Of a DNA stretch of 64,000 nucleotides, positions 6,737-45,245 are shown in pieces (the first letter of the stretch is position 1; each line of letters opens with the position of its first letter). Source of the DNA: Tepidisphaeraceae bacterium (GTDB lineage Bacteria; Planctomycetota; Phycisphaerae; Tepidisphaerales; Tepidisphaeraceae); assembly GCA_050012375.1 (NCBI GenBank), contig JBEKHH010000012.1, positions 27,881 to 91,880 on the forward strand, given 5' to 3'. The notes below the pieces were generated by a model. The model saw nothing but the letters and a program-made list of their open reading frames with translations, did no database searches and was not told the DNA's origin. The position numbers and the translations under genes were made by a program.

Positions 6737-7294
6737 ATGTTTGAGCCGGAACGACAGGCATTCCGCCAGGTTTTCAAGCTGCCGCGGGCGACGATGCGCG
6801 AGTCGATGATACTCGCGGCGATCTACGCCGCGCAGGCGGTGACGTGCGCGGCGCTGCTGAGTCTGGGGTATCAGCGCGCGAGTGTTCCCGGGCTCGGATG
6901 GGCGGTGATATCGGCGGTCATCGTGCTTCAGCCGGGTATTCAGGCATCCCTGGCGACGTCGATCGCGCGAATATGCGCCAATGTGGTCGGCGCGATCGTC
7001 GCTGTGGCGGTCGAGCGATGGGCTGGAGGCGGTACCTGGCAGCTCCTGGTCGCGATCACGGTGATTGTTTTTATCTGCGAGGCGCTCCGGCTGGACATGG
7101 GGCTGCGCGCGGCGTGTGTGTCGGCCGTCATCGTGATGACCTTTCATGACACCCGGGTCATGATGAGCGGCGTCGATCGATCGATTTCAGTGATGATCGG
7201 TTCAGCGCTGGCGGTTATCGTGCAATTTGCCGGCTCGCGACTTAAACATTGGATCTTTGGCTGGCGCCATGATGCCTCCGCATCGGCCGATTGA
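6737..7294 (+). CDS. small FUSC/ArAE-like integral membrane protein
   Basis: ATG lies 2 nt after the amine-oxidase stop. It has several hydrophobic helices, and the pattern (AVISAVIVLQP..., NVVGAIVAV) resembles aromatic-acid-exporter/FUSC N-domains. Confidence 0.45.
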   Translation: MFEPERQAFRQVFKLPRATMRESMILAAIYAAQAVTCAALLSLGYQRASVPGLGWAVISAVIVLQPGIQASLATSIARICANVVGAIVAVAVERWAGGGTWQLLVAITVIVFICEALRLDMGLRAACVSAVIVMTFHDTRVMMSGVDRSISVMIGSALAVIVQFAGSRLKHWIFGWRHDASASAD

Positions 7295-7336
7295 CGATTT
7301 CTCGATTCCCGCGGCGCTTGCAATACTTACCCCGCC

Positions 7337-7516
7337 ATGATGCACGCCTTGAACGACCTGGAATCCCACATGCATCAGCACGTGCATAAGGAGAACAACG
7401 TGCTGTTTCCAGGTGCGATCCTCATGACGCGCAATCGCTCACCGGGCCATTGGGTCATCCTACCGCCGATGTACGAGGAAGAATTTGGGATCTTTGCCAT
7501 TATGTTGACGGTCTGA
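7337..7516 (+). pseudogene. hemerythrin/RIC-like HHE-domain C-terminal fragment
   Basis: 59-codon ORF MMHALNDLESHMHQHVHKENNVLFP.. matches the H-x3-H...KE-x2-LFP end of hemerythrin-like di-iron domains. The rest of the domain is absent. Confidence 0.35.
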
Positions 7517-7561
7517 CCTGACGGTCGTTTCGCTGGGTGACGGCACGGTTCACGCCGGCCG

Positions 7562-7891
7562 TCAGTTGCTGGCCTGCAGGAACTTGACGATTTCCCGGGC
7601 TTCCACACCCGTCAGGTTGGCGCGCAGGCGCATGTGGTGAACGATGACATCCCACTGGGCGGCGCTGAATTCTTCAGGAGGGCGGCCGTTGTGGCAGCGC
7701 ATGCAGTTCTCCGACCATAACTCGACGCCGGTCTTTTGGGGAGGCGGGCCGAAAAGCGCGAAGCTGGCGGGCTGGGTCGTGACGCCTTGGGCGGAAGGAC
7801 TTTGATCGGACTTGCAGCCGTACAGCACCATGCCGGCCAGGAGGCCGCCAAAGGCGAGAACCACAACAAACTTGGTTTTGATTTTTCGCAT
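7562..7891 (-). CDS. lipoprotein monohaem c-type cytochrome
   Basis: Signal peptide with lipobox LYGC and a single CMRCH haem motif. Last gene of the NrfCD-cytochrome-porin operon. Confidence 0.8.
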   Translation of the reverse strand: MRKIKTKFVVVLAFGGLLAGMVLYGCKSDQSPSAQGVTTQPASFALFGPPPQKTGVELWSENCMRCHNGRPPEEFSAAQWDVIVHHMRLRANLTGVEAREIVKFLQASN

Positions 7892-7903
7892 GGGAACTCC
7901 ACT

Positions 7904-9214
7904 CTAAAGTCCAATACCGACTTGGAGGATAAACGCATTCTGATTTTCGCCGACCTTCTTCTGATCGATTTCGTAGGCGGTTTTGACCACGCAGTAGGAA
8001 GTGACCCAATAGTCGATGCCCAAGGTCAAGCGTGATTCGTGCTCGCCGCCCGGGGTATTGAGCGGGGTGTCCAGACTGTCGAATCGGGAGACGAGTTCGA
8101 CGTTTCGGAGGATTTTGTTGTTGAGTTCCGTGGGGCGGTAGCACAGCGAGAAGTAACCGCCCTGGCTGAAATTGCCGAAAGTGGTCGGACCGAAGCCAAG
8201 GACTCCCGTTGGGTCGTAGGTGGTGGGACTGACGTTGGACCAAATCCATTCTCCGCTAAAGTCGATTTGACCGCTGATTGCCTTGATCAGCGGCTTCCAG
8301 TGAAAATCGGCGGCCTGTAGGGACGCGTAAACGTTAGAGAAGTCATCGGGGTTCGGCTTGGAATACTGAATCGAATAGCCCATTTCCATGTCGGGGAATG
8401 GAAGGAACCCCAGGCGCCCGCCCACGGCCTTGTTGTTATTCAGGTCGGTGTAGTCGTTGAAATTGAGTTGCCCGGCGGCGGCGGGATCATCGGTGATGAG
8501 GTTGGGTCCATTGGCAACGTACAGATCGTATGTCCAGCGGGTCGTTCCCGATGGAATGACTCCCTTGGCGAAGGCGCCCACTTCCGAGATAGGCGCGATC
8601 GCGTCGAAGGCGAGGGGATCATCCGGAAATTTGTTGACCCACGGCGGGTCGAAGTGATTGTGATACTGGCCAAATGGCACGGCGAATAGTCCGGCGCCGA
8701 TTATGAAATAGTCGCAGACTTCGTAGGAGATATCTGCCAGATTGACGTTCAGGGTAGAGGTCTCCGAGTTGATATCCGCGCCGCCGATGCCCAGATCGAA
8801 CGCCGATTCGATCAGGATATGCGAATCCACCGGCTGCCAAAGGATCAGCGGGCTTACATCGGCGAAAAACGTGGAATCGGTCCCGCGCTGGGTCTGAAAT
8901 CCAAAGGCGGCGTCGCCGGCGAGGACGAATGATTCAAGGCCGGGGTGAATTTTATTGACCAGGTCCTGGATGCCCTTCATCTGCTTGTCAGTGTCCTGGG
9001 CGTCCTGATCGGCAGCGGCGGCCTGATCCGCCTGCGCTTTCTTGACGTCGGCCAGTTCCTGTTTCATCTCGGCGTTGTCTTTCTGAAGCTGCTGGAATTC
9101 CTGGCGGCTGACGGACCGCGGTTGGGTGGTGGGCGGCGGATTGTTGGAGTTATCCTGCCCGCGCGCCGGCGAGAGAAGGAACAGGATGAGAATCCCGAAA
9201 ATAACTCTGTGCAT
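7904..9214 (-). CDS. secreted coiled-coil + beta-barrel porin-like outer-membrane protein
   Basis: ATG 9214 (MHRVIFGILILFLLSPARG/QD signal peptide). A Q/K/D/A-rich coiled-coil stretch is followed by about 350 aa of alternating aromatic/Gly beta-strand pattern, as in phosphate-selective-type porins. No CxxCH motif. Confidence 0.55.
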   Translation of the reverse strand: MHRVIFGILILFLLSPARGQDNSNNPPPTTQPRSVSRQEFQQLQKDNAEMKQELADVKKAQADQAAAADQDAQDTDKQMKGIQDLVNKIHPGLESFVLAGDAAFGFQTQRGTDSTFFADVSPLILWQPVDSHILIESAFDLGIGGADINSETSTLNVNLADISYEVCDYFIIGAGLFAVPFGQYHNHFDPPWVNKFPDDPLAFDAIAPISEVGAFAKGVIPSGTTRWTYDLYVANGPNLITDDPAAAGQLNFNDYTDLNNNKAVGGRLGFLPFPDMEMGYSIQYSKPNPDDFSNVYASLQAADFHWKPLIKAISGQIDFSGEWIWSNVSPTTYDPTGVLGFGPTTFGNFSQGGYFSLCYRPTELNNKILRNVELVSRFDSLDTPLNTPGGEHESRLTLGIDYWVTSYCVVKTAYEIDQKKVGENQNAFILQVGIGL

Positions 9215-9228
9215 GGTTGCTCCTTCGA

Positions 9229-9699
9229 CTATTGGCCGTTGGCCGGTTGGGTGGCGGGCTGGGTGCTTGGAGCCGGCGCCAACGTGCGTAAGTAGTTGAT
9301 GACGTTCCACCGATCCTCCTCAGTGGTGAGGCTTTCAAACGTCGGCATCGGTTTTCGCCCGGTGGTGATTTTCCAGTAAAGAGCGCCATCGGTTTGGCCG
9401 GCGACATTTGGATCGGAAAGGTTTTTTGGCCTGGGGTTGAGGTCCTTGGCGGAAGGGCCATCGCCTTTGGCGGCGTCGCCATGACACTTCAGGCATTGTG
9501 CGATATAGACGGCTTTACCGGCGGCGATGGAGTTGCCGTCGGGAGGGATGGGGTTTTTCTTTCGCGCCGCGCGCGCGGGCGCCACCCATGGCGGGCTGCT
9601 GGCATCGTCGGCCATGATGAACAGGGATGAAAAGACCGTCACCAAAAGAACGGTGCCAAATAGAGTGCATACCCATCGGGCCGAAGTTGTCCGCGTCAT
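9229..9699 (-). CDS. membrane-anchored monohaem class I cytochrome c
   Basis: N-terminal hydrophobic anchor, CLKCH haem motif, and a distal Met region (GRKPMPTF). Confidence 0.85.
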   Translation of the reverse strand: MTRTTSARWVCTLFGTVLLVTVFSSLFIMADDASSPPWVAPARAARKKNPIPPDGNSIAAGKAVYIAQCLKCHGDAAKGDGPSAKDLNPRPKNLSDPNVAGQTDGALYWKITTGRKPMPTFESLTTEEDRWNVINYLRTLAPAPSTQPATQPANGQ

Positions 9700-9701
9700 T
9701 C

Positions 9702-10217
9702 CTATCCACCTTTTCGAATTGCCAAGATCCGACTGAAGACAAAGAAATAGCTTAACCAGACTCCCGCCAGGATAACGAATATGCTCACCGTCAGCGCCAA
9801 GGGCGCGTGAGGGGCCCAGAGGGCTCGCGGAAACTCGGCAACGGGAGCGGGCTGGACATCCGCCGGAAAGGCCGCCGAAGTGGAAACAGCGGAATATTGC
9901 GCCGGCGCCTTGATTCGCACTATAAGGTGAAGCTTTCCGTCGGATGCGCCGGGCAAGTCTGATGGGAATGCCACGGCCGAAGTGCCGTCATCCAAGGTTG
10001 TGTCTTGGCCGATCGGCAAGTTTCCAAACGTTCGCTGGACGAAGTATTGCAGGATGACGTTTTCGATGGGCTTGCCGTTGAGTGATACCGAAGCCTGGAC
10101 CATTTTCTTGCCGTCTTCAATGTCCGTGGTGAGGCTGATGGCGGGCTGAGTGGTTTGAGCAAAAGCCGCCCATGGCCAGAGGAGCAGGACCCATGTGATG
10201 AAAAGGACCAGCTTCAT
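9702..10217 (-). CDS. hypothetical periplasmic beta-rich protein with C-terminal TM anchor
   Basis: 171 aa starting at MKLVLFITWVLLLWPWAAFA (signal peptide), with a C-terminal helix LALTVSIFVILAGVWLSYFFVF. ATGA overlap with the nrfD-like stop at 10214..10217. Confidence 0.6.
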   Translation of the reverse strand: MKLVLFITWVLLLWPWAAFAQTTQPAISLTTDIEDGKKMVQASVSLNGKPIENVILQYFVQRTFGNLPIGQDTTLDDGTSAVAFPSDLPGASDGKLHLIVRIKAPAQYSAVSTSAAFPADVQPAPVAEFPRALWAPHAPLALTVSIFVILAGVWLSYFFVFSRILAIRKGG

Positions 10218-11557
10218 GCCAACACCGCCGCGGCAGCGCTCGGAATGGCCGGCATGCCTGCCGGCCGCGGCCACTGGGTCTGATCCACTTCCCAGATCGA
10301 GATGATGGGAAACACTTTGGAGAACAGGATGAACATGAGGAGAAAGGCGGCGAATCCGCCGGCGGTGATGGACCATTCGACCCAGGTTGGAACGTAGGCA
10401 AGGTGGGCCCCTTCGCGCGGGGGCATGAAGGGCGATGCGAGCGTGGGGACGACGATGATGTATCGCTTGAGCCACATGCCAATGTTGACCAAAAGCGCGG
10501 CGAGGGAGATTCCGGAGATGGTTCGGCCCAGCGGGGTGACGAGCATCAGCAGCGGCAGGACCAGCCCGACGAAGATCATCGCCCAGAACTGGATCGCGTA
10601 ATGGCCGGAGATCATCTTTTCCAGGAGCGGGCGTTCGACGCTTTCGCCGGTATAGGCGGCACCGACGTGTTCGTTGACCACGAAATATGCGTAAGCCAGG
10701 CCGAAGACGAGCATCAGTTTTGCAAGCTTGCGCAAATGATCGACGGGGATGTGTGCCTGCAGGCGTAGAAAATATCGGAAGAGGACGATGGCGGTGATCA
10801 CGGCGGCGACGCCGGAATAGAGGGCGCCGATGACGAAATCCGGGCCGATGATCGTGGAATGCCATCCGGGCCGCAGGGTCATGCCGAACAGCCACGCGGT
10901 CACCGTGTGGATGGAGACGGCGACCGGGAGGATGACAATCGCCATTACCGAGACGGCGCGATCGAGGTTGCGGTATTGATTGGGGGTGCCGGTCCAGCGC
11001 ATGGCAAGCGTGCCGTAAAGTTTCTGCCGCCATCGGGAAAGGCCCGGCGTGTCACGCAGGATGGCCAGGTCCGGAATCATCGGGACATAGAGATAAAGAA
11101 AGCTGCCGGCGAGATAACTGGTCAAAGACAGCATGTCCCAGAGAATGGGGCTTTGCAGCCGGCCGTAGCGGATGACGTGCAGGAACCGATCGGGCCGGCC
11201 CATGTCGATGATGACCATCGGTCCAGCCACGAGCAGGGCGAAGACGGTGATGGCCTCGGCCAATCGAGAAATCGGATGCCGCCAATGGGCGTTGGAGAGG
11301 CGCAACATCGCGGAGATAAGGCTTCCGGCCATGCTGATGCCGATGAAAAACACAAAATTGACGATGTAAACGCCCCAGGAGAAGTAATCGCTCATGGCGG
11401 TGGCGGCCAAGCCGATGCGAAGCTGGTGGATGTAAGCGACCAGCGCCCAGGCGACGACCAGGCCAAGTGCGATGACGAGGAACTTGTGGGCAAACCCCGG
11501 CGGGCCGAGCGTCGCCAGCATGTCCCTTTCCACGTTGTTCGATTTGGCGTCGCTCAT
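10214..11557 (-). CDS. NrfD/PsrC-family quinone-interacting integral membrane subunit
   Basis: 447-aa polytopic protein. The N-terminal part (YFSWGVYIVNFVFFIGISMAGSLISA..., GRPDRF) is typical of polysulfide-reductase NrfD family members. Confidence 0.85.
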   Translation of the reverse strand: MSDAKSNNVERDMLATLGPPGFAHKFLVIALGLVVAWALVAYIHQLRIGLAATAMSDYFSWGVYIVNFVFFIGISMAGSLISAMLRLSNAHWRHPISRLAEAITVFALLVAGPMVIIDMGRPDRFLHVIRYGRLQSPILWDMLSLTSYLAGSFLYLYVPMIPDLAILRDTPGLSRWRQKLYGTLAMRWTGTPNQYRNLDRAVSVMAIVILPVAVSIHTVTAWLFGMTLRPGWHSTIIGPDFVIGALYSGVAAVITAIVLFRYFLRLQAHIPVDHLRKLAKLMLVFGLAYAYFVVNEHVGAAYTGESVERPLLEKMISGHYAIQFWAMIFVGLVLPLLMLVTPLGRTISGISLAALLVNIGMWLKRYIIVVPTLASPFMPPREGAHLAYVPTWVEWSITAGGFAAFLLMFILFSKVFPIISIWEVDQTQWPRPAGMPAIPSAAAAVLA

Positions 11558-11566
11558 TGAAAAACC

Positions 11567-12457
11567 TCAGTCCTTCGTCAGCGGGCTTGGCGGGGCGAAC
11601 ATTCGATTCTTGGGCGGGAGGTAATAGACGCGCGGCTTGGTGCCCAATTCCTCCATTTGCCGGTACCCGCTGCGATCCATCAGCAGCTGAGACAATCGCT
11701 GGGTCTCGCCCTGTGCGTTAGTCACCGCGTCTTCGTTCTCGTCGCCGTAATACATTGCGCCCATCGGGCAGATACCGACGCAGGCCGGGAACATGCCCAT
11801 CTCGGCCATATCCGGACAGAAATCGCATTTTTCGACGGTCCCGATCCGGCGCGGATAACCATATTCGGGCGAGTAACCTTTTTCCAAGGCCTGGGGCGGA
11901 TCGTGCGGCGTACCCCAGTTGAAGCTGCGGGCGCCGTAGGGACAGGCGGCCATGCAGAACCGGCAACCGATGCACCGCTCATTGTCGATGAGCACCACGC
12001 CGTCGGAGCGCTTGAATGTCGCATCCACCGGGCAAACTTTGGTGCAGGGCGGGTTGTCGCACTGATAACACGGCTGCGGGAAGAAATACGGCGCCGTCTT
12101 CTCCGATTCCTGCATCCGCAAAACCTTGATCCATTGCCGGTCGGGGGGAACGAAGTGCATCTTGGAGCAGGCCGATATGCACTTGCCGCACCCGTCACAT
12201 TTGGCCAGGTCGATCACCATGATCCAGCGTCTCCCCGGGACGCCTTGGCGAGCGGAATCCGGCGATGTTGATATAGCCGCTCCGGTGCGCGCGTCCACGA
12301 CCTGATGGTCGGGGGTTAGGGCGGGCATAGCCGCCCCGGAGGGAACTTCGTTGCTGGCGGCGGCGGCGCGAACACATCGGCAGGCGACCTCGCCGGCCGC
12401 GGCGGCGCCCAGAACCGTCAGGCTATATCGCAGGAACTGTCGTCGATTGCTGTCCAT
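11567..12457 (-). CDS. Tat-exported NrfC/PsrB/DmsB-family 4x[4Fe-4S] subunit
   Basis: ATG 12457 with GGAGG SD and twin-arginine signal SNRRQFLRY. Cys clusters are CDGCGKCISAC, CYQCDNPPCTKVCP, CIGCRFCMAACP and CDFC. Confidence 0.9.
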   Translation of the reverse strand: MDSNRRQFLRYSLTVLGAAAAGEVACRCVRAAAASNEVPSGAAMPALTPDHQVVDARTGAAISTSPDSARQGVPGRRWIMVIDLAKCDGCGKCISACSKMHFVPPDRQWIKVLRMQESEKTAPYFFPQPCYQCDNPPCTKVCPVDATFKRSDGVVLIDNERCIGCRFCMAACPYGARSFNWGTPHDPPQALEKGYSPEYGYPRRIGTVEKCDFCPDMAEMGMFPACVGICPMGAMYYGDENEDAVTNAQGETQRLSQLLMDRSGYRQMEELGTKPRVYYLPPKNRMFAPPSPLTKD

Positions 12458-12477
12458 CGTAAACCCTCCGCAATTAG

Positions 12478-12499
12478 CCCCCGGTGAACACACCGGGGG
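12478..12499. other. perfect 9-bp GC hairpin (CCCCCGGTG-aaca-CACCGGGGG)
   Basis: Read directly from the sequence. It lies 21 nt upstream of the nrfC-like ATG, in the 149-nt gap after the ATPase stop. No U-tract follows on either strand. Confidence 0.6.
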
Positions 12500-12606
12500 G
12501 CCAGATGGCGGCGTATCTGTACGAAGAAGTATCGGAATTCGTCGCGATCAAAAAAATCGGGGCTCGCCCGGCAAATCGCGTAGGGGAAATTGCTTACAGC
12601 GGACGA

Positions 12607-14517
12607 TCAGCGGAAGTCGCGCAGGATGCGCGGGGCCACGGCGGCGCGCAGGGCATTCAGCACGGCGGCAACGTCGATTGCTTCCTGAACCAATGCCCCA
12701 GCTACGGGAACCAAGTGCCCGGCCGCGGCGAAGGCCATGCCCGCCAGGCTCAGGATCATCCCGCCGATGGCGCATTGCAGTGCGATGCTGCGCATTCGGC
12801 GGCTGATGTGTAGGAACTCATCGACCTTCTCCAACGAATTGTCCATGATGACGGCGTCGGCGGCCTCGCTGGTGACATCGCTGTTTGTGCCCATGGCGAC
12901 GCCCACGGTGGCGGCCATCAGCGCCGGGGCGTCGTTGATGCCGTCGCCAACATAAAGCGTGCGATTCTTTTTCGTTTCGGCGGTCACGATCTCCAGCTTT
13001 TCCTCGGGACTCTTGCCGGCGTAGATTTCGTCTATGCCGACGGCCTGGGCCAGCTGGCGCACTGCCGAATCGCGATCGCCGGAAACGAGCAGGACTCGGG
13101 CCAGTTGATGACGCGGGCCGAGGTGGTCGATGAAGCCACGGCTGTGGGGGCGCGGCTCATCGCGGAAGCGGAATATGGCCGCGTAGCGGTTGTCGATCAA
13201 AACGGCGCACTCCAGGCCTTCGGCCGGCGGCGGCAGTTCGCTTGCAACCGATGAATCCAGGGAAAGTAGCTTTTTTCGGCTGGTCATGTGAATGACATGA
13301 CCCGTGACGGTGCCGCTGAGACCTTCGCCGGGCTTCTCGTTGATCTGGGTGGCATCGTCCAAAGGGATCGAAGCCTCGCTCGCGGCCGCGATGATCGCGA
13401 CGCCCAGGGGATGCTTGGAATATCGCGCGATGCTGGCGGTGAGGCGAAGGACATCCCGCTTATCGAGACCCGGCGCACACAGGGTTTCCACGAGCTTCGG
13501 CTCGCCATAGGTCAGGGTGCCGGTCTTGTCGAAGATGGCGACGCGGCAGGTATCGACCAGTTCCAGAACGGCCTGGTTCTTGATGATGATTCCCCTGCGG
13601 GCGGCCAGGGAAATCGAACCGATGACCGCGACGGGAAGCGCGATCAATAGCGGGCAAGGGGTGGCAACGACCAACACGGCGAGAAAGCGTGAGGGCTGGC
13701 CGGAGGCGGCCCAGGCGATCAAGGCGATGGCGACGGCGATCGGCGTGAAGATGGCGCCGATCTGGTCGCCGAGGCGGCGAATGCGCGGACGATTCTGTTC
13801 CGAGGCGCGCATGACCTGCATGATTTTGGCATAGCGCGAATCGACGGCGAGTTTCGTGGCGCGAATGACCAGCGCCGCGGGCCCGTTGGTGGCGCCCGAC
13901 AGCACCTGGGAACCCGTGGCCTTGGACATGCGATACGGCTCGCCGGTCAGGTAGGCCTCATCCATGCTGCCGCTGCCTTCGATGACGACTCCATCGACGG
14001 GACAGATTTCATGAGGAAAGACGATCAGCGTGTCGCCGGGAGCAACTTGGGATAGAGGAACGTCCGACAAAACCTCGGCGGACTTGCGGTGGGCGGTGGA
14101 GGGCATTCGGCGGGCCAGGGCGTGCAGGACCGAAGATGCGTTGCGCACGGCGAAAGCTTCGAGCGCCTCGCCGCCGGAGAGCATCAGCACGACAATCGAT
14201 CCCGCCAGATACTGGCCGAGGAAGACGGAGGTGACGATGGAGATTCCGGCGAGGAGATCGGAGCCGAATTCGCGTTTGACGAGCTTGACCAGCAGCCCGA
14301 AAACCAGGGGCGTTCCCCCGCCAGCCAGGGCTGCGAGCAGCGGCGCATTGGCGACGGTCGCGCCGGCGTGAAGGCCGAATCGCAAAAGCAGATGTGTGGC
14401 GATCGCGAGGATTGCCAGCAGCGCGATTGCGTTGGGAAGCTGTTTGCCAAAGGTCGATTCGGCGCGCGGGCCCTGGGCGCCATCGATGGGAAAGGCGGCT
14501 GATAGCTCATCGGACAT
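12607..14517 (-). CDS. P1B-type heavy-metal P-type ATPase with TPCP membrane motif, no N-terminal metal-binding domain
   Basis: ATG 14517 (MSDELS..) within ORF 12607..14913. Motifs [21 protein letters not shown] and the membrane-helix motif ATPCPLLIA. No HMA CxxC and no His-rich N-terminus. Confidence 0.85.
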
Positions 14518-14545
14518 CACTTTGTCCTTGAACTTGCGCGGGGGC

Positions 14546-14965
14546 TTACCCCGCATCGCCCTTGGACGATGGGGTCTGTTCCAATGCCTGAGGTGGAGGC
14601 GCTTCATCCTGCTCAGGAGTTGTGACGACCGGCGCATCGGACAGAGCGGCCACCGACTCCAATATCGCCAGCGCGTCAGTCGCATAGTCCAGGAAAGGAC
14701 CCGGCTCGGCGCCGCGATCGGACAAAACCCGACCGCCGCTCGATGTGTCCGCCGACGATTCACCCAGCAGTTTGATGGCGAATTCCTCGTATCCGGCAGG
14801 AGGCTGGGCGCGGTACCGCTCGAGGAATCGCGCCAACCGTGGCAACTGGATGAACAAGGGACAACGAACTTCGCAAGAGCAGCCGGCGAGCAGTTGCGAC
14901 GGATCGGAGGCATTTGGGCCGGGTTGACATTGAGGGCAAATCTGCGCCCGCAATCCCAACTTCAT
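14546..14965 (-). CDS. hypothetical Cys-rich protein with acidic/Pro-rich tail
   Basis: 139 aa from ATG 14965 (GTG 14992 or 15001 also possible). N-terminal cluster C-x2-C-x17-C-x-C-x3-C (ICPQCQ...GCSCEVRCP). Wedged between HypB-like B and the ATPase. Confidence 0.5.
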
Positions 14966-15021: not shown

Positions 15022-15765
15022 TTATCTTAAGCAAGCATTTCCGGAAGACGGCTGCGGCTCCATCGGCGCATCGCGCCACTTCTTGGCGGCGCGCGCACTG
15101 TTCAGCCATGCGAACCAACGGTACATGCCGGATCCGGATACGGCGGAAAGCTCGATGATCTCCGCCTTGGGGGCAATCGCTTGAGCGTCGTTGCGGAAGA
15201 CGCGGTCGTTGAATTTCACCATCGGCCGCACGTCGCTCTTGGTCAGTAAAATGACCGAAGCGCTCTGCAACATCGCGCGATACTCCAACGCCTTGTCGTC
15301 GCCGCCGCTGACGGCCAGCACCGTCGCGGTGGCATCCTGGCCGATGTCCTGCAAAGGGGCCATTCCGCCGCAACCCTCGATCAGGATGAAATCGAAGTCC
15401 CGCAAGCGAAGCTGCGAAACGGTTCGCCAGATCGCGGCGGGATCGGGAATGGCGGAATCGAGATGCCCCACATATCCGCATCGGTTCTGAAGCCGGTCCG
15501 CCTCCCGGACGGACGCCGGGTCCACGGCGATCACGGCGACCCGCCTCGGCCCGGGATATCGCTTTACGGTTGCTTCGATCAACTCGGTTTTGCCGGATCC
15601 CGGCGGCCCGATGATCCGCACGGCCAGCACCCCGGCGCGCGCCGGCGCCGCGCGAACTATTGCCGCCAGCGGGCTCCGCCCAGTGTTCCTTTGCGCATCG
15701 CCCAATGTTCCATGGCCGGCGTTCTCGATCGAATGGAGCGAGGGTCCAGACGTTTCCTTCGTCAT
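15022..15765 (-). CDS. HypB/UreG-family (G3E) P-loop GTPase paralogue B
   Basis: Walker A GPPGSGKTE, GGDDKALEY, and TKSD in place of NKxD. IEGCGGMAP replaces ENVGNLxCP. ATG 15765 forms an ATGA overlap with the upstream paralogue's stop. Confidence 0.8.
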   Translation of the reverse strand: MTKETSGPSLHSIENAGHGTLGDAQRNTGRSPLAAIVRAAPARAGVLAVRIIGPPGSGKTELIEATVKRYPGPRRVAVIAVDPASVREADRLQNRCGYVGHLDSAIPDPAAIWRTVSQLRLRDFDFILIEGCGGMAPLQDIGQDATATVLAVSGGDDKALEYRAMLQSASVILLTKSDVRPMVKFNDRVFRNDAQAIAPKAEIIELSAVSGSGMYRWFAWLNSARAAKKWRDAPMEPQPSSGNACLR

Positions 15766-16484
15766 GGCATGCCTTCTGAAGATTTCGTTTGATCGCCCCA
15801 ACTCATCAATGGATTAAACATTCTCGCGTTCCTGCGATTCTGAACTCCCGAAAACAGGTGCGACTCGACCCAACCCACCCAAGCCTCGATTCCCTGATTG
15901 GATTGCGCGGACGCATGAATGATGTTCAGACCTGGTTTCAGCCGCTCAACATCCTGGCGGAAGACTTGAATATCAAATGTGACGTAGGGGAGCAGATCGG
16001 TCTTGGTAAGCAGAACCAAGTCAGATCCGGCAACAAGAAACGGATATTCCGTCGCTTTGTCGTCGCCTCCGGCCACGCTGAAAACGCTGACTCTCAGGTG
16101 ATGCCCCAGATCGAATTCGACGGGGCTCAGCGCATTGCCGTCGGCTTCGATGACCAGGAGGTCAAGATGCTGCAGATCCAATTGGCCCAGCGACTCGCGG
16201 ACATGAATGGCTGCCAGATTATCAGTAATCAGCGGCACGGCCTGATATCCATGCCGGGTGATGCGCGAAACCTGCCGTTCAGCGGCGAGGTTGCCAACCA
16301 TTACAGCGGCGCGAACCTTGGGATCCAGGCGCGTGAGCAACGCTTCGATCGCCGACGTTTTCCCGGAGCCCGCCGGCCCAACCACGCTGATCACCGTCAA
16401 ACCGGCCGCGTCGAAATCTTTGCGATTCGCCTGCGCAATCTGGTTGTTCAATTCAAATCGCTCGTTAAGCGTGACTGGTTTCAT
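15762..16484 (-). CDS. HypB/UreG-family (G3E) P-loop GTPase paralogue A
   Basis: ATG 16484 with GGAG SD (a TTG at 16505 is also open). Walker A GPAGSGKTS, GGDDKATEYP and TKTD. IEADGNALSP replaces ENVGNLxCP, and the GCH motif is absent. Confidence 0.8.
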   Translation of the reverse strand: MKPVTLNERFELNNQIAQANRKDFDAAGLTVISVVGPAGSGKTSAIEALLTRLDPKVRAAVMVGNLAAERQVSRITRHGYQAVPLITDNLAAIHVRESLGQLDLQHLDLLVIEADGNALSPVEFDLGHHLRVSVFSVAGGDDKATEYPFLVAGSDLVLLTKTDLLPYVTFDIQVFRQDVERLKPGLNIIHASAQSNQGIEAWVGWVESHLFSGVQNRRNARMFNPLMSWGDQTKSSEGMP

Positions 16485-16606
16485 GGTGACCACGCTCCGT
16501 TCCAAAAGCGCTTCGAGTGCAATTCGCGTTAGTTTGGCGGAAAATCGGCCAAAGCCAGTTGACTGTCGAACCAGCGCATTGAAGATGTTCGGCCAAGGAG
16601 CGTTGC

Positions 16607-28325: not shown

Positions 28326-30860
28326 TTAGCGTGCCGCGACGGCCAAATCATCTTGAACGGGGCCGGACGTGGGCGTGGAATCCTGTCCGCCTCGATGGCT
28401 GCGAATTCTCATCCCATAGAATGACCGGTAGACGAAGCACAGCGCGATGATGAAGAACCCAAGCGCCAGCCAGGACGTCAGGGCCGGTCCGTTGGGATTC
28501 TTCCTCAGGCTTTGGGCCAGTTCAACGGCCAGCAGGCCAAACAGCGTTGTGAACTTGATGATCGGGTTCATGGCCACCGAAGAGGTATCCTTGAACGGAT
28601 CGCCGACGGTGTCGCCGACGACGGTGGCGGCGTGCAAATCGGTTCCCTTTTCTCGCAACACAACCTCAATGATCTTCTTGGCGTTGTCCCAGGCCCCGCC
28701 GGCGTTGGCCATGAAGATCGCCTGGAACAGACCGAAAACCGCCAGGGAAATCAGAAATCCGATGAAGAAGAACGGGTTGACGCAGGCGTAAGCCAGGGTG
28801 CTGAAAAAGACTACGAAAAAGATGTTGACCATTCCCGCCTGGGCATAGCGCGTGCAGATTGCGACGACTTTCTTGCTGTCCTCGATGGACGCTTTATCGG
28901 CGCTCTCAAGGCGAATGTTGCGGCGGATGAACTCGACGGCGCGGTAGGCGCCGGTGACGACGGCCTGCATGCTGGCGCCGGTGAACCAATAAATCTCCGC
29001 CCCGCCGGCGATCAGGCCCAGCAGGAATGGCGCATACAACACGGAAAGATGGGAGATGCCCACGGGATCGGTCAGCTTGTTGGTCAGCATCATGATGATC
29101 GAGAAGATCAGCGTGGTGGCGCCGACGACGGCGGTGCCGATCAGCACGGGCTTGGCGGTCGCCTTAAACGTATTTCCCGCGCCGTCGTTCTGCTCCAGCA
29201 GCAGCTTGGAGTGATCGAAATCGACGTTGATGCCGTGATCGCGTTTGAAATCCTCGCGGACGCCGGGAATCGTTTCGATCTGGCTCAACTCGTAAATGCT
29301 CTGGGCGTTGTCGGTGACGGGTCCATAGCTATCGACGGCAATCGTGACCGGTCCCATTCCCAGGAACCCAAAGGCGACCAGACCAAACGCGAACACTGCG
29401 ACAGCGATGCCAGCGCCGGGAGTGAGCAGCGACACGACGCCGCCGTCTCCACCCCAAACGCAAACGCCGTAAGCGACCGCCATTAAACCGGCGATGACGC
29501 CACCCATCCAGAACGCCGAGAAATTGCCGGCGACGAGTCCGCTGAGGATGTTCAACGATGCGCCGCCCTCGCGGCTGGCATCGACGATCTCGCGCACGTG
29601 TCGGCTATTGACGCTGGTGAAGACCTTGGTGAGTTCGGGGATCAGCGCCCCCGCCAGCGTGCCGCAGGTGATGATCGTGGACAACTGCCACCAAAGCCCG
29701 CCGCCGAGGTTATGAATCAGCGCCAGCGAGCCTAGGTAGGTTGTCACGATGGAAACAAAGCTGGTGATGTAAACCAGGCTGGTGAGCGGTTTTTCGAAAT
29801 CCATTTCCGTGGCGTGCTCATAACGTGCGCGAGCCAGCACCTCGTTGATCCAATACGAGACGCCGCTGGTAATCAGCATGATGAGGCGCATGGCAAAGAT
29901 CCAGACCAGCAGTTGGACCTGGAGTTCCGGTCGAACCGCCAGAAGGATAAAGGTAATCAGCGCCACGCCGGTGACGCCGTAGGTTTCGAAGCCGTCGGCG
30001 GTGGGTCCGACGCTGTCGCCGGCGTTGTCGCCGGTGCAATCGGCGATCACGCCCGGATTTCGGGCGTCGTCTTCCTCGACTTTGAAGACGATCTTCATCA
30101 GGTCCGCGCCGATGTCGGCGATCTTCGTGAATATCCCGCCCGCGACGCGCAGGGCGGCCGCGCCCAGCGATTCACCCACGGCAAATCCGATGAAGCAGGG
30201 ACCGGCGTAGTTCCTCGGAATGAAAAGAAGGATGACCAGCATGATCAGCAATTCGAGACTGATGAGCACCATGCCGACGCTGATGCCGGCCTGGAGCGGG
30301 ATCGAATAGAGCGGATACGGCTTGCCCGCCAGGGACGCTTGGGCGGTGCGGCTGTTGGCGAAGGTGTTGATCCGCATCCCGAACCACGCGACCGACACAC
30401 TGCCGGCGATGCCGACCAGACTGAACCCCAGGATGGTCGCCACCTGCGCGACGGTCATGTGCTGCCCCGCCTCATCCGTGGTAAGCCAACCGAAATAGAC
30501 CACCAGGATCGCCCCAATGAAGAGTTCCAGGAAGAGAATGAATCGCAATTGCGACTTCAGATAAGTCATGCACGTGGCGTAAATGGTCTCTGAAACCGCG
30601 CTCATCGCTGGATGAACGGGCAGCGCCTTCAGGCGGCGCTGAATGATCAGCCCAAATGCCAACCCCGCGACGCAGAGGGCCAGGCCGCAGAAGAGCAACG
30701 TCCAGCCGTCGATGACGCCGAAGTATCGCACGGAATGCAAATCAGGCATTCGAAGGCTCGCCTCGCTCGCCAGCGAGAGGGATGGAAACGCCAATGCGAA
30801 AAATGCAAAGACGGCGCCGAGCAGAACCGGGGTCGGCTTTGCCGGCAAATGCCATGTCAT
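28326..30860 (-). CDS. hppA: membrane-integral proton/sodium-translocating pyrophosphatase
   Basis: Motifs GGIFTKIADIGADL, GDNAGD and DTVGDPFKD. GNTFKATAKP carries Lys at the Ala/Lys discriminator position, suggesting the K+-independent class. ATG 30860 is chosen inside the longer ORF. Confidence 0.9.
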   Translation of the reverse strand: MTWHLPAKPTPVLLGAVFAFFALAFPSLSLASEASLRMPDLHSVRYFGVIDGWTLLFCGLALCVAGLAFGLIIQRRLKALPVHPAMSAVSETIYATCMTYLKSQLRFILFLELFIGAILVVYFGWLTTDEAGQHMTVAQVATILGFSLVGIAGSVSVAWFGMRINTFANSRTAQASLAGKPYPLYSIPLQAGISVGMVLISLELLIMLVILLFIPRNYAGPCFIGFAVGESLGAAALRVAGGIFTKIADIGADLMKIVFKVEEDDARNPGVIADCTGDNAGDSVGPTADGFETYGVTGVALITFILLAVRPELQVQLLVWIFAMRLIMLITSGVSYWINEVLARARYEHATEMDFEKPLTSLVYITSFVSIVTTYLGSLALIHNLGGGLWWQLSTIITCGTLAGALIPELTKVFTSVNSRHVREIVDASREGGASLNILSGLVAGNFSAFWMGGVIAGLMAVAYGVCVWGGDGGVVSLLTPGAGIAVAVFAFGLVAFGFLGMGPVTIAVDSYGPVTDNAQSIYELSQIETIPGVREDFKRDHGINVDFDHSKLLLEQNDGAGNTFKATAKPVLIGTAVVGATTLIFSIIMMLTNKLTDPVGISHLSVLYAPFLLGLIAGGAEIYWFTGASMQAVVTGAYRAVEFIRRNIRLESADKASIEDSKKVVAICTRYAQAGMVNIFFVVFFSTLAYACVNPFFFIGFLISLAVFGLFQAIFMANAGGAWDNAKKIIEVVLREKGTDLHAATVVGDTVGDPFKDTSSVAMNPIIKFTTLFGLLAVELAQSLRKNPNGPALTSWLALGFFIIALCFVYRSFYGMRIRSHRGGQDSTPTSGPVQDDLAVAAR

Positions 30861-31042
30861 TCTGGACAACTGTTCGCGTCTAAGGGAATTGCCAAACACA
30901 ATAGCCTCCTTGTGGCTGTACCATACTCGAACCGCAAAGCGGCGAGTTGGGTGCAGGGAACTATCCGGGATCATCGTCATTTCAGAAATCGGCACTCTCC
31001 CTATTCTTCGCGTAGGGGAATTCGCTGATGCGGAGCGCACTG

Positions 31043-32182: not shown

Positions 32183-33199
32183 CTAATCAGATGTCGCATT
32201 ATGGACTCGGCCATGCCAACTATTAAGCACGCGCATGTAATTGGCCCGTTCGAACGCCGCCGGGTCGGGGCAATGAGCAAGACTCAGGCATCCCTGCATC
32301 TGGCGGATAGATTCATATTCGTGTTCCTCCATCCACGCTTTCAAGGCGTCGAGAATAACCTTGAGATGTTCCGGGCCATGTCTTAAAAGGGCCGAGACAA
32401 TCTGAACCGCATGGGCGCCGGCCATGACCGCCTTGATCGCATCGGCCGCCGTGTGGACTCCGCCGCTGGCGGCGAGTGAAGCCGTGCATCTTCCCGAAAG
32501 GATCGCGAGCCATCGGAGCCGCAGCAGCAACTCGGATGAATCGGAAAGATGAAGCCGCGGGACTACGCTGATATCGTCCAAATCAATATCGGGCTGATAA
32601 AAGCGATTGAACAGCACCAATCCGTCGATCCCGGTGGTGCGCAACTCCATCGCCACGTGCGGGAGCGATGTGAAAAATGGAGACAGCTTTACCGCCAGCG
32701 GCAGCTTAACCGCCTCGCGCACGTTTCGCGCGACCTCGCGGATTTGCTGCTCAATGGAATACAGCGTTTCGCGCGCTTCCGTGGCCACGTGATAGACATT
32801 CAGTTCCAGCGCATCGGCCCCAGCCTGTTCGATGAGTTCCGCGTAGCGCAGCCAACCCGAGATTCTCAAGCCGTTCAATGAGGCGATCACCGGCACGTGA
32901 ACCGCCTCCTTGAGACGGCGAATTTGTTCCAGGTAGGCATCCGGACTCATCGCAAATTCGCTGGCCCCGGGGAAGAATGACAACGCCTCGGGGAAACTGT
33001 CGGCGTACATTTCGAATTGCTCGACGCTGGCGTGGTGTTCGCCTTCGATCTGCTCCTCGAACAACGAGCGCATGACGATGGCCGACGCGCCGGCGTCTTC
33101 GAGACGGCGGGCCGTGTCGAGGTCATCGGCCAATGGCGACGCTCCAACCATCAGCGGATTGGCCAATTCCATCCCCATGTATGTGGTCGTGAGATTCAT
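32183..33199 (-). CDS. dihydroorotate-dehydrogenase-like (class 1 DHOD/DHPD fold) flavoprotein
   Basis: ATG 33199 forms an ATGA overlap with the nifJ stop. TIM-barrel motifs include MELANPLMVGASPL, ALELNVY and SGGVHTAADAIKAVMAGAHAVQIVSALL. Confidence 0.75.
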   Translation of the reverse strand: MNLTTTYMGMELANPLMVGASPLADDLDTARRLEDAGASAIVMRSLFEEQIEGEHHASVEQFEMYADSFPEALSFFPGASEFAMSPDAYLEQIRRLKEAVHVPVIASLNGLRISGWLRYAELIEQAGADALELNVYHVATEARETLYSIEQQIREVARNVREAVKLPLAVKLSPFFTSLPHVAMELRTTGIDGLVLFNRFYQPDIDLDDISVVPRLHLSDSSELLLRLRWLAILSGRCTASLAASGGVHTAADAIKAVMAGAHAVQIVSALLRHGPEHLKVILDALKAWMEEHEYESIRQMQGCLSLAHCPDPAAFERANYMRVLNSWHGRVHNATSD

Positions 33200-36100
33200 A
33201 GTCGCACCTTTGCAGTTGGAGGTGGCGGCACTGCCGTTTGAGTCTGTGCCGAAGGAGGTTCGGCCAATTGGTGATATAGAGAATACCGATCGGCGACTTG
33301 CCGCTTGGCTTTCTCCGACAACATCTTGTAGCGGTCGGGATTCTTTTGCTCGACCATCCGGAAGCGAGTCTCGTTCACCATAAACTGCTGCAACTGGTTG
33401 TTGGGCGCACCGGAATCCAATTGGAGCGGACTCTGTCCGGCGGCGCGGCGCCTGGGATCGTATCGATACAGCGGCCAATAACCGCTGGCGACCGCCAACT
33501 TATGTTGTTCCGGTCCCAATACCAGGTCGTAGCCATGCGCGATGCAATGGCTGTAGGCGATGATCAAAGCCGGTCCCGGATAGGAGGCGGCCTCCTGCAT
33601 CGCTCGGACCGTGTGCACGTCCTTGGCGCCAAAAGCCACCTGAGCGACGTACACGTTTCCGTACGTCATGGCCAGCAGACCCAAATCCTTCTTGGGAGAA
33701 GATTTTCCGGCCGCGGCGAACTTGGCCGCCGCGCCGATCGGCGTCGCCTTGGACTGTTGGCCACCCGTATTGGAATAGACTTCGGTATCCAGCACCAAGA
33801 CCTTTACATCTGCGCCGGACGCCAGCACGTGATCGAGTCCTCCGTAACCGATGTCGTACGCCCACCCGTCGCCCCCGATGATCCAAACGCTTTTGTAAAC
33901 CAGATAATCGGCCAGGAGGGAAAGCTGTCTGGCCTCGGGCGAGCCGTCGAATGATGCCAGTTTCCGCCGCAATTCCGCCACGAGCGTTCGTTGCGTGGCG
34001 ATGCCCTGATCGCTGGTCTGGTCCGCGTTCAGAATCTCCCCCACGAATTTTTCATCCAGAGGCGGTTTAAGACGACCCAGAAGCTGGCGAGCGTATGCCG
34101 CTTGCTGATCCACCGCCAGGCGCATTCCCAATCCGAATTCGGCGTTGTCCTCGAAGAGCGAATTGCTCCAGGCGGGGCCGCGCCCTTCGCGGTTGGCGCA
34201 ATAGGGCGTCGTTGGCAGATTGCCGCCGTAGATGGATGAGCACCCGGTCGCGTTGGCAATCAGAAGCCGATCGCCCATTAATTGCGTCAGCAGCTTGAGG
34301 TAAGGCGTCTCGCCGCATCCCGCGCATGCGCCGGAGAACTCGAAGAGCGGCTGGAAGAATTGCGAGCCTTTGACGTCCACGCGCACCTTGGCGCGGTCGA
34401 TTTCGGGAATGTCCAGGAAGAATTTGAAATTGTCCGCCTCGCGCCGGCGCAGCGGCGCCTGCGGCGCCAGGTTGATCGCCTTGCGCTTGGGCATGGATTT
34501 GTCCTTCGCGGGGCACACCGCCACGCAAACGCCGCAGCCCGTGCAATCTTCCGGCGCCACCTGCAACGTGTATTTCATGCCGCGCAGATCGGGCGCGTTG
34601 TAGTCGGTCGAAACAAATCCTTCGGGCGCGCCGGCCAGGCTTTCGGCCGGGAATACCTTGGCGCGGATCGACGCGTGGGGGCAGGCAAAGGCGCACTTGT
34701 TGCATTGAATGCACAATTCCGGCTCCCACACCGGGATTTCCGTGGCGATGTTGCGCTTCTCCCAGCGCGCCGTGCCGACCGGCCAGGTCCCATCCACCGG
34801 CATCGCGCTGACCGGAAGAAGATCGCCGCGGCCGGACAGGATCATCGCCGTCACGTTTTTCACGAAATCGGGCGCCTCGATGGGCACGGTCGGCGGAAGC
34901 GGCGGCCCGCTCGCGCCATCGGCCGGGATCGGCAGTTCGTGCACGTGCGCCAAGGCGCCATCCACCGCGGCGAAATTCTTGCGTACCATCTCCGCGCCCT
35001 TCTTTGCATACGTCTTCTCGATGGCCTTCTTGATCTGTGCGATCGCCTGATCGCGCGGCAGAACGCCGCTGATGGCAAAGAAGCACGTCTGCATGACCGT
35101 ATTGATGCGCCCGCCCATCCCGACCTCGCGCGCAGCGTGCAAGGCGTCAATCACATAGACGCGCAGCTTCTTCTCGATAATCTGCTTCTGGACTTCGCGC
35201 GGCACGTGCGCCCAGACCGCATCGAGTTCAAACGGCGCATTGAGCAGCAGCACCCCCCCTTCCTTCGCAAAGCCCACAATGTCGAACCTCTCCAAAAGGT
35301 GGAATTGATGGCAAGCCACGAAATTCGCCTGGCGGATGAGATATGCCGAGCGAATGGGCCGCGGCCCGAACCGCAGGTGGCTGATGGTCATCGCCCCGGA
35401 CTTCTTGGAGTCGTAAACGAAATACCCCTGGGTATTGAAGTCGGTTCCTTCGCCGATGATCTTGATGGAGTTCTTGTTGGCCCCGACGGTTCCGTCGGCG
35501 CCGAGTCCGAAAAATACCGCGCGGAAAACGTCGTCGGGTTCGATGTCGAAGTCGTCGGATACGGCCAAGGACAATTTCGTCACATCGTCATTGATCCCAG
35601 CGGTAAAGTGCGGTTTCGGGTGAGCTTGGTTCAACTCGTCGAATGCGGCCTTGACCATGGCCGGCGTGAATTCGTGCGAGCCCAAACCATAGCGCCCGCC
35701 GATCACGAGGGGCTGTTTCGCAAACCGCGTCGATCCTGCCGCCTGGCCCTCGTACAGTGCGGCCACGACATCGAGGAACAGCGGCTCGCCGATGCCTCCG
35801 GGCTCTTTCGTGCGGTCCATCACGGCGATGGATCGCACGCTGGCTGGAACGGCGGCGAGGAAATGCTCCACGGAGAACGGCCGATAGAGCCGGACCTTCA
35901 AAACTCCAACCTCCTCGCCGTCGCGGATCAAGCGATCCACGGTTTCGTGCGCGGTCTCAGCGCCGGATCCCATGATGACCATCACTCGCTTCGCCTGCGG
36001 ATGCCCCACATATTCAAAGAGCTGGTACGGGCGTCCGGTGATTCCCGCAAAGCGCTCCATCGTCTTTTCCACGATGCCCGGGCACGCGAGGTGGAACGGA

Positions 36101-39383: not shown

Positions 39384-39390
39384 GGTGAGT

Positions 39391-45232: not shown

Positions 45233-45245
45233 AAAGGTGACTGTG

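Follow-up and report, generated by a model that had tools for sequence, protein, structure and literature searches.

A planctomycetal operon encoding a putative minimal alternative complex III together with an outer-membrane porin–cytochrome pair

In alternative complex III (ACIII; ActABCDEF, with structures from R. marinus, 6F0K, and F. johnsoniae, 6BTM), quinol is oxidized by ActC, an NrfD-family subunit with 10 transmembrane (TM) helices. A periplasmic four-cluster ferredoxin placed on an NrfD subunit likewise connects the quinone pool with c-type cytochromes in NosGH–NosC1/C2, DsrOP–DsrJ, QrcCD, and the Cbc4 and Cbc5 complexes of Geobacter. At the outer membrane, Cyc2, the Fe(II) oxidase of acidophilic and neutrophilic iron oxidizers, unites a monoheme c-type cytochrome with a barrel of ~16 strands, and MtrCAB, MtoAB/PioAB, and the Pcc/Ext systems of Geobacter wrap sheaths of 20 to 28 strands around deca- or octaheme wires. 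Here, we analyze a six-gene operon whose products, from their predicted functions, would combine an ACIII-family quinol oxidoreductase with a porin–cytochrome pair. It lies in a 64,000-nt stretch of DNA from a Tepidisphaeraceae bacterium (Planctomycetota; contig JBEKHH010000012.1, GCA_050012375.1), hereafter called the window, to which all coordinates refer unless a locus name precedes them. We have found no description of such a porin–cytochrome/mini-ACIII module in the open-access literature; an earlier description elsewhere is possible.

Six open reading frames (ORFs) are confirmed at 7562–12457, all on the minus strand, and the gaps between them are, in gene order, 9, −4 (an ATGA overlap), 2, 14, and 12 nt. 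The number, order, and tight packing of the genes given in a preliminary description of this DNA agree with these coordinates and gap lengths. The set is kept together in 14 NrfCD-type loci, and because it is conserved as a set in these related loci, the arrangement is far beyond chance. A scan of 7200–12800 for promoters and terminators returned counts not above those of shuffled controls and is uninformative on operon boundaries. Pfam and NCBIfam confirm the iron–sulfur (FeS), NrfD, and cytochrome c assignments; the 171-aa protein (p171) and the window's barrel match no family in either database.

Module swapping around a constant porin–cytochrome core

The operon was compared at the ORF level across 38 loci, comprising 34 loci from a genome scan and L001–L004, with L003, L016, and L021 duplicating others; the annotated contexts of further loci bring the total to ~45. 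All 34 genome-scan loci are from metagenome-assembled genomes (MAGs) of Tepidisphaerales/Phycisphaerae, except two labeled only Planctomycetota and one labeled Omnitrophota. Many loci are from peat, palsa, or soil samples (SPRUCE, palsa, and MFD records). The nearest homologue of the barrel, at 92% identity, is found in a Tepidisphaeraceae MAG. In every locus examined (~45), the barrel gene is followed directly by the gene for the lipoprotein cytochrome, and this pairing persists at ~30% barrel identity (L043–L045). Most loci have a class I cytochrome c gene ahead of the pair or else carry the cytochrome as a fusion to the barrel. What lies upstream of this trio varies. NrfC–NrfD–p171 genes occupy the position in the window and 13 further loci (the NrfCD-type loci are L004–L007, L009, L010, L022, L026, L027, L030, L033, and L038–L040), genes for a Rieske protein and a cytochrome b with a fused cytochrome c domain do so in 12 loci, and the COX2 and COX1/3 genes of a caa3-type oxidase lie directly upstream in L023 alone. 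No respiratory genes are upstream in L017, L020, L041, L044, and L045, and stand-alone pairs of a fusion protein and a lipoprotein cytochrome occur far from respiratory genes.

A neighbor-joining tree of the barrels, which is a distance tree without support values, mixes NrfCD- and bc-linked loci and requires at least four switches between them; the window's NrfCD clade is nested within a grade of bc-linked loci (L011, L013, and L012). The cytochrome c tree tracks the upstream module and not the barrel tree, with the signature CL[KS]CH...AKDL in the NrfCD type and CLACH in the bc type. The swapped unit is therefore the quinol module together with its cytochrome c, and the constant core is the barrel with the lipoprotein cytochrome. 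The DUF2721 gene and HypB-like GTPase found upstream in the window recur in the bc-type loci L012 and L013, and the P1B ATPase recurs in L012 alone; these GTPase and ATPase genes, lying upstream of both operon types, served as the synteny anchor. Just upstream of its Rieske gene, L013 carries 70 nt (L013:7168–7237) that match the beginning of nrfC (window 12459–12390) at 80% identity and cover the first 68 nt of that gene. This remnant appears to be a scar of the exchange, and thus direct evidence of replacement in place. It is mainly on account of this replacement that genes 1–4 would be expected to do the job of the bc complex, namely, quinol oxidation and cytochrome c reduction.

In L026 (2524–6429), one NrfCD–p171–cytochrome c block is followed by two barrel genes, whose identities to that of the window are 35% and 48%, and three small cytochrome ORFs, one of which lacks a signal peptide and lipobox; the barrel–lipoprotein cytochrome pair is duplicated in tandem. 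In L043 (1–10255), a same-strand run encodes NrfC, NrfD, a 386-aa cytochrome c, an FAD/FeS NAD(P)-type oxidoreductase, a Rieske protein, cytochrome b, a diheme cytochrome c, a cytochrome c–porin fusion, an 88-aa lipoprotein cytochrome, and one more cytochrome c. It calls to mind the elaborate Rieske/cytochrome b complexes of anammox planctomycetes.

The first gene of the operon (11567–12457) encodes a 296-aa NrfC/ActB2-like ferredoxin subunit predicted to be exported by the twin-arginine translocation (Tat) system. Its sequence contains NRRQFLR, a Tat motif, and four CxxCxxCxxxC(P)-type Cys groups, and Pfam assigns it to Fer4_11 at 3.8e-21, bearing out the Tat-signal 4x[4Fe-4S] protein of the preliminary description. 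Its top NCBIfam model is DsrO, at 187.9 bits, under the cutoff of 200. Against the Protein Data Bank (PDB), it matches ArrB (6cz7_B, 3.8e-32), PsrB (2vpw_B, 4.7e-30), and the C-terminal part of ActB (6f0k_B, 3.3e-21). The subunit has Fer4 domains only, with no molybdopterin-like domain, and its match to ActB chains is confined to their residues ~780–950.

The second gene (10214–11557) encodes a 447-aa integral membrane protein that matches PF03916 at 1.5e-39. Residues 23–425 match ActC of ACIII (6f0k_C) with an E value of 3.1e-65 in a phmmer search of the PDB, and three other ActC chains, 6btm_C (3.4e-59), 8k9e_C, and 6lod_C, follow at ~1e-58. The match to ActF reaches only 7.6e-5 in the same search, and the NCBIfam model for DsrP gives 116 bits, under a cutoff of 350, with QrcD likewise far under its cutoff. 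The earlier assignment to the NrfD family is thereby sharpened to an ActC-type, presumably quinol-binding, subunit. The quinol site of ActC comprises H139, D169, and D253 in R. marinus numbering (PMC8076601). These residues align to D118, D141, and L223 in the operon's protein, and the central Asp alone is conserved.

The third gene (9702–10217) encodes p171. Its AlphaFold2 (AF2) model, at a predicted local distance difference test score (pLDDT) of 85, consists of an N-terminal signal peptide or TM helix, an immunoglobulin (Ig)-like β-sandwich, and a C-terminal TM helix, in keeping with the signal peptide and C-terminal anchor already recognized in the preliminary description. A Foldseek search of the PDB returned only generic Ig-like matches, all with E values above 1e-3. 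Identification of p171 as ActD or ActH was dropped, as Foldseek gave no ACIII subunit. The family is small, with 88 homologues that carry no informative names, and it occurs in all 14 NrfCD-type loci and in no bc-type locus. In L022 (1527–3494), NrfD and p171 are fused in frame in a single 656-aa ORF, with p171 at the C-terminus of NrfD; the fusion keeps the hydrophobic N-terminal segment of p171, likely as an extra TM helix. This fusion argues that p171 is a subunit of the membrane arm, and it may be a clade-specific structural partner of NrfD. A 655-aa NrfD with a Big_1 domain, encoded in L043 (14093–16060), is only weakly similar to p171 (E 1e-4).

The fourth gene (9229–9699) encodes a 156-aa class I monoheme cytochrome c (CLKCH; PF13442 at 3.7e-13) of c552/ActE-like type. 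The c552 structures 9vr0_A and 7o9u_A are its closest PDB matches, at ~1e-22. Matches to ActE are weaker, ranging from 6e-8 to 8.5e-5 (6lod_E at 6e-8; 6f0k_E at 3.5e-6), and those to cytochrome 579 of Leptospirillum are weak, at 42–51 bits against a cutoff of 280. The preliminary description had called this protein an anchored monoheme cytochrome c. The single heme stands, but a cleaved signal peptide is more likely than an anchor: homologous N-termini with AxA-type cleavage sites head fusion proteins bound for the outer membrane, and the cytochrome is probably soluble after cleavage. In the MAG locus L005 (8162–9986), which is 92% identical to the window, the cytochrome c ORF is broken across two frames; the break is probably an indel error of long-read assembly and not the mark of a pseudogene.

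Taken together, genes 1–4 look like a minimal ACIII-type quinol:cytochrome c oxidoreductase. The preliminary description had treated NrfC and NrfD as an orphan module. The lack of a catalytic subunit is confirmed, but the orphan status is not, since the module behaves as a minimal ACIII and is replaced in other loci by Rieske, cytochrome b, and cytochrome c genes.

Barrel, lipoprotein cytochrome, and fusions

The fifth gene (7904–9214) encodes a 436-aa protein predicted to be an outer-membrane porin. Its AF2 model, built from a 34-sequence alignment with a pLDDT of 74, shows a signal peptide, a helix at residues 37–89 that forms an N-terminal stalk, and 16 strands, as foreseen in the preliminary description of a secreted coiled-coil and barrel-like protein. 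Sequence comparison with the PDB yields only noise (E above 0.2). Foldseek matches the model to OmpT, OmpC, OmpF, OmpK36, OmpM1, and OprP with E values of 1e-10 to 1e-8 and TM-scores of 0.5–0.65; OprP (2o4v) scores 1.4e-8 with a TM-score of 0.54–0.57, and OmpM1 (8byt and 8bys) is among the top matches. A profile search of 1.84 billion cluster representatives recovered 1434 relatives, 388 of them, as clusters at 50% identity, with E values at or below 1e-30. PF07396 (Porin_O_P) is matched at E ≤ 1e-3 by 13 of 45 relatives, the best at 2.6e-10, and the window's barrel itself has no PF07396 match at E ≤ 0.01. On this evidence, the barrel appears to be a divergent relative of the Porin_O_P superfamily.

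The preliminary description had named an ordinary phosphate or anion porin under independent regulation as a finding that would speak against its proposal. The apparent kinship with Porin_O_P goes halfway toward such a finding, but neither independent regulation nor anion selectivity fits. The barrel part has 40 D/E against 17 K/R, lumen-facing strand positions (assigned from the sequence and not from coordinates) have 15 D/E against 8 K/R, and loops L3 and L4 have net charges of −3 and −4. An acidic lumen, as these counts predict, is the opposite of an OprP-type anion channel. An ordinary phosphate porin lying beside unrelated genes is rejected by the acidic composition together with the invariant adjacency and the independent fusions. 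Conservation within the barrel is highest in L4 and in the long L3-equivalent loop that joins strands 5 and 6. An invariant YHNHFDPPW in L3 was considered as a metal or heme site and rejected family-wide, as the wider family has G.F.ERLHP.W, in which both His residues are not conserved.

The sixth gene (7562–7891) encodes a 109-aa lipoprotein monoheme cytochrome c with an LYGC lipobox, a low-complexity tether of ~35 residues, the heme motif CMRCH, and the segment HHMRLRANLTG, which probably supplies the Met ligand. The lipobox and heme motif of the preliminary description are thus both present. The combination of lipobox, C.RCH, and HMR.RA.LT recurs in nearly all of 40+ orthologues; among those that deviate, two are frameshifted in draft assemblies and another two show no obvious lipobox Cys. 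The protein has no PDB match by sequence and only weak NCBIfam matches (~1e-4) to the C-terminal domain of TorC and to SorB, and its 125 homologues carry no informative names. The proposal that barrel and lipoprotein cytochrome form a real functional pair is supported by their adjacency in every locus and by the recurrent fusion of the upstream cytochrome c to the barrel.

The window's barrel polypeptide contains no CXXCH. In relatives, an N-terminal cytochrome c domain is found in 18 of the 45 scanned against Pfam, and an N-terminal extension with a single CXXCH is found in 19 of the 148 best family representatives. Fusions of cytochrome c and barrel occur in L002, L029, L032, and L037 and arose at least three times among Tepidisphaerales loci (L002; L029 with L032; L037). 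Each runs in the order of cleavable signal peptide, cytochrome domain, Pro/Ala-rich linker, helix of ~50 residues, and barrel, so that linker and helix place 60–120 residues between heme domain and barrel. A distant cytochrome c–porin fusion in L042 (2105–9875), the 624-aa P0372, directly follows genes for a multicopper oxidase, CopB, and a copper-type P1B ATPase bearing an HMBD; a second multicopper oxidase gene lies downstream, and the context is one of copper resistance and not of respiration.

These fusions bring to mind a Cyc2-like port in which Fe(II) (or Mn or Cu) ions would enter the acidic porin and be oxidized by the lipoprotein cytochrome, with electrons moving inward via cytochrome c to an oxidase or uphill through a reversed bc complex or mini-ACIII into the quinone pool. 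A monoheme cytochrome fused to a 16-strand barrel does recall the architecture of Cyc2, and the barrel is acidic; however, the heme domain is a full class I cytochrome held off the barrel by linker and helix, with no plug, and a Cyc2-type plug is not supported for that reason. Peat, palsa, and soil, from which the samples came, commonly hold Fe(II), and the oxidase, bc, and ACIII-like contexts parallel the downhill and uphill pathways of Acidithiobacillus and the Zetaproteobacteria. The weak match of the cytochrome c to Leptospirillum cytochrome 579 points the same way. Against this, the window carries pyruvate:ferredoxin oxidoreductase, Hox-type hydrogenase, and H+-pyrophosphatase genes, heterotrophs have no obvious need for reverse electron flow, and the organisms are described as fermentative or organotrophic polysaccharide degraders (PMC11266412). 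Overall, we regard such an oxidation port as improbable.

The main alternative is that the operon serves ordinary respiration. The monoheme cytochromes may simply be carriers that take electrons from complex III-type enzymes (bc or mini-ACIII) to terminal oxidases or reductases, with the stalked porin as a scaffold. The porin would tether or concentrate the carriers in the wide planctomycetal periplasm, and may set membrane spacing; its channel would serve an unrelated purpose such as cation or nutrient diffusion, and no redox chemistry would take place at the outer membrane. The position of the trio behind bc, mini-ACIII, and, once, caa3 genes is where cognate carrier genes usually lie, and this explanation accounts for the bc and oxidase contexts as well as the one favored below. 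The cytochrome c is nearest to soluble c552 carriers, the long tether of the lipoprotein recalls the membrane-anchored carriers cytochrome c_y and c552, and stalk plus porin resembles the outer-membrane attachment porin OmpM1. Carriers on a scaffold leave unexplained, however, why the extracellular-side loops L3 and L4 should be best conserved, and they do not account for the stand-alone pairs far from respiratory genes or for the L042 copper-resistance cluster. Moreover, cytochrome c oxidases are not among the usual Tepidisphaerales components reported (PMC11266412). We consider ordinary respiratory wiring of this type rather unlikely.

Flanking genes and the proposed electron path

The operon is flanked upstream by genes for a P1B-type ATPase and then two HypB-like GTPases, and downstream by genes for a FUSC-like membrane protein, an amine oxidase, and IlvD. 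The flanks encode no molybdopterin enzyme, NrfA, or NosZ, no DsrMKJ genes are near the operon, and neither the operon nor its flanks contain a multiheme ORF or a second NrfD ORF. This annotation upholds the earlier claim that no terminal enzyme is encoded in or beside the operon. Nor do homologous operons consistently abut a known terminal reductase, a finding that would have spoken against the conduit proposed there; their neighbors vary, with cytochrome bd oxidase in L039, multiheme cytochromes in L004, and nothing relevant in L040. In L039 (11831–14197), cydA and cydB directly follow the six-gene operon on the same strand. In L004 (1–6600 and 12206–21231), genes for many multiheme cytochromes and for NHL/β-propeller proteins flank the NrfCD-type operon on both sides; the cytochromes match Paired_CXXCH, the MtrC/MtrF domain, and Cytochrom_NNT, and L004 is the only locus with such a neighborhood.

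The absence of a terminal enzyme underlies the strict form of the preliminary proposal, an outward conduit in which electrons from quinol would pass through both cytochromes to reduce Fe(III), Cu(II), or humic quinones, either extracellular or bound at the porin, for dissimilatory or assimilatory ends. Geobacter feeds extracellular electron transfer by both bc-type and NrfD-type Cbc quinol oxidases, and the MtrC/MtrF-like domain matches around L004 would suit such a path, although they occur in one locus only. Two monoheme proteins, however, cannot span a membrane of ~4 nm, and a general-porin fold with an L3 constriction could not accommodate an inserted cytochrome. Most Fe(III) minerals are, in addition, poorly reduced by high-potential His/Met cytochromes c. 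That Tepidisphaerales are reported with ACIII while cytochrome c oxidase is not reported (PMC11266412) is in its favor, and still we judge an outward conduit to be decidedly improbable. On the predicted fold, a heme wire of the Mtr/Mto/Pcc type across the outer membrane is not plausible, because the porin has a constriction loop and each cytochrome has one heme.

The explanation that we prefer, tentatively and at just under an even chance as a whole, joins the minimal ACIII module to an outer-membrane porin–cytochrome pair that acts on a small redox solute. The ActC-like NrfD subunit, with p171 bound to it as a structural subunit, would oxidize menaquinol at its periplasmic face, and electrons would run from NrfD through the four FeS clusters of NrfC to the soluble c552/ActE-like cytochrome c. 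The N-terminal helical stalk of the porin would project into the periplasm, and cytochrome c, covalently fused there in many relatives, would dock on it and exchange electrons with the tethered lipoprotein cytochrome at the porin's periplasmic mouth. The pair would then oxidize or reduce a small, probably cationic, redox-active solute admitted by the porin, candidates being Fe, Cu, or Mn ions or their chelates, thereby linking solute and quinone pool with no multiheme wire across the membrane. Gene content, folds, homologies, the swapping of modules, fusions, and conservation are what the data show; the order and direction of electron flow, the substrate, and the outer-membrane site of the lipoprotein are what we infer, and reaction of a small cationic substrate at the porin is our best guess. 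A metal-redox role is compatible with the L042 copper cluster, the L023 oxidase, the L004 multihemes, and the Tepidisphaerales survey, each a single or indirect observation. That survey reports mostly ACIII and bd oxidase, with cytochrome c oxidase not reported among the components (PMC11266412), and the acceptor of reduced cytochrome c is left open on this account.

Several points weigh against the proposed path. At its inner-membrane end, the quinol chemistry may differ from that of ACIII, because D118 and L223 stand in place of H139 and D253, two of the three quinol-site residues of ActC. NrfC-type [4Fe-4S] clusters are usually of low potential, and transfer from FeS clusters to a monoheme cytochrome without an ActA-like multiheme subunit has precedent only by inference, in NosGH–NosC1/C2 and DsrO–DsrJ. 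At its outer-membrane end, His/Met monoheme cytochromes are carriers and not catalysts, the wider family does not keep the L3 HNH motif that first hinted at a metal site, and the interaction of lipoprotein cytochrome and barrel is putative. Sorting of lipoproteins between inner and outer membranes is not predictable for Planctomycetota. Finally, association with bc and oxidase genes is equally expected of ordinary cytochrome c carriers.

The genes next to the operon deserve separate mention. The P1B-type heavy-metal ATPase gene (12607–14913, minus strand; TIGR01525, 487 bits) lies directly upstream on the same strand and encodes the TM motif TPCP, which we take to mark the P1B-5 Ni/Fe-type group. 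The two HypB-like GTPase genes (15022–15801 and 15762–16505, minus strand) are in tandem. The GTPases and the DUF2721 gene have upstream homologues in NrfCD-type L005, L006, L010, and L039 and in bc-type L012 and L013; among the compared loci, the full ATPase gene is matched only in L005 and L012. Further along, the window encodes H+-pyrophosphatase, pyruvate:ferredoxin oxidoreductase, HypF, HypD, a NuoF/HoxF-like subunit, and the large subunit of a NiFe hydrogenase (28326–31040, 33196–36816, and 37005–46670). This gene content points to a bidirectional hydrogenase of the Hox type and to a facultative anaerobe that ferments. A link of the operon to metal handling through the upstream GTPases and ATPase was considered and rejected, with Hox/Hyp genes 20–30 kb away. 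The GTPases and the ATPase more likely serve the Hox-type NiFe hydrogenase, whose genes in the same window probably explain why HypB genes lie beside the operon.

If the proposed reading is true, an ActC-like NrfD, NrfC, an Ig-like subunit, and a monoheme cytochrome c would constitute a previously undescribed minimal ACIII, and its swap in place with bc would be a natural experiment showing what NrfD-family enzymes require for quinol:cytochrome c activity and for energy coupling. The barrels form a large unannotated family of outer-membrane porins that are obligatorily paired or fused with small cytochromes. The markers in use for iron cycling and extracellular electron transfer are, to our knowledge, Cyc2, Mtr/Mto, and Pcc, and this family would probably escape them. 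Tepidisphaerales are common in peat, permafrost, and soil, and a link between outer membrane and quinone pool would bear on iron–carbon coupling there and on what reoxidizes cytochrome c in ACIII genomes without a reported cytochrome c oxidase. That porin, tethered lipoprotein cytochrome, and stalk-borne cytochrome c make up a new, heme-poor class of outer-membrane redox system, in which a diffusible metal or organic substrate meets mobile cytochromes at the mouth of the porin and no hemes are wired through the membrane, is doubtful but worth stating. Were it so, the abundant Tepidisphaerales of peat and soil, and hundreds of other lineages that carry the family, would have an unrecognized redox capacity for Fe, Cu, Mn, or humics, one that plugs into whichever quinol:cytochrome c oxidoreductase is present, the minimal ACIII included.

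Comparison with described systems

Alternative complex III is the nearest relative of the inner-membrane half. The operon's NrfD matches ActC over its full length, its FeS subunit resembles the C-terminal (B2) part of ActB, and its cytochrome c weakly resembles ActE. The block also shares with ACIII the ability to stand in for a bc complex, in this case at one and the same locus of the chromosome. It differs in having no pentaheme ActA, no B1 molybdopterin-like domain, no second NrfD-like subunit (ActF), and no ActD, in possessing the unrelated, single- or double-pass p171 with its Ig-like domain, and in the changes at two of the three quinol-site residues. Other NrfD clusters of Planctomycetota contain ActA- and ActB-like genes (PMC10732223). 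The NosGH, DsrOP, Qrc, and Cbc modules share the four-cluster ferredoxin on an NrfD subunit; here, in contrast, there is no NosZ, DsrMK, or Qrc partner, and NrfD is far nearer to ActC than to DsrP or QrcD. Membership in DsrMKJOP fails on both scores, that for DsrO (187.9 against 200) and that for DsrP (116 against 350).

In the outer-membrane half, the likeness to OprO/OprP (PF07396) is one of fold class, that of the 16-strand trimeric porins; those proteins have an Arg/Lys ladder, whereas the barrel described here has acidic lumen and loops and is always paired with cytochromes. Its helical stalk recalls the coiled-coil stalk of OmpM1, and it has no SLH domain. MtrCAB, MtoAB/PioAB, and the Geobacter Pcc/Ext systems follow the same gene logic, in which a barrel, a periplasmic cytochrome, and a lipoprotein cytochrome are co-transcribed and coupled to a quinol oxidase, but their wide sheaths around multiheme wires contrast with a 16-strand porin that has a constriction loop and monoheme partners. 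Cyc2 likewise combines a monoheme c-type cytochrome with a ~16-strand outer-membrane barrel, on one polypeptide as in many members of the present family, and is likewise linked to bc/ACIII and oxidase genes. The family described here differs from it in a complete class I domain, a Pro/Ala linker with a helix of ~50 residues, an obligatory second (lipoprotein) cytochrome, and an apparently Porin_O_P-related barrel, and it is set apart from Cyc2 by this architecture. By sequence, no homology to Cyc2 emerged from Pfam, NCBIfam, or the PDB, which hold no Cyc2 model or sequence, and NCBIfam at E ≤ 1 gave nothing of relevance. The analogy to MtoAB/PioAB and Cyc2 drawn in the preliminary description thus fails on structure, given the 16-strand general-porin fold, the conserved L3-type loop, the single hemes, and a heme domain that sits off the barrel.

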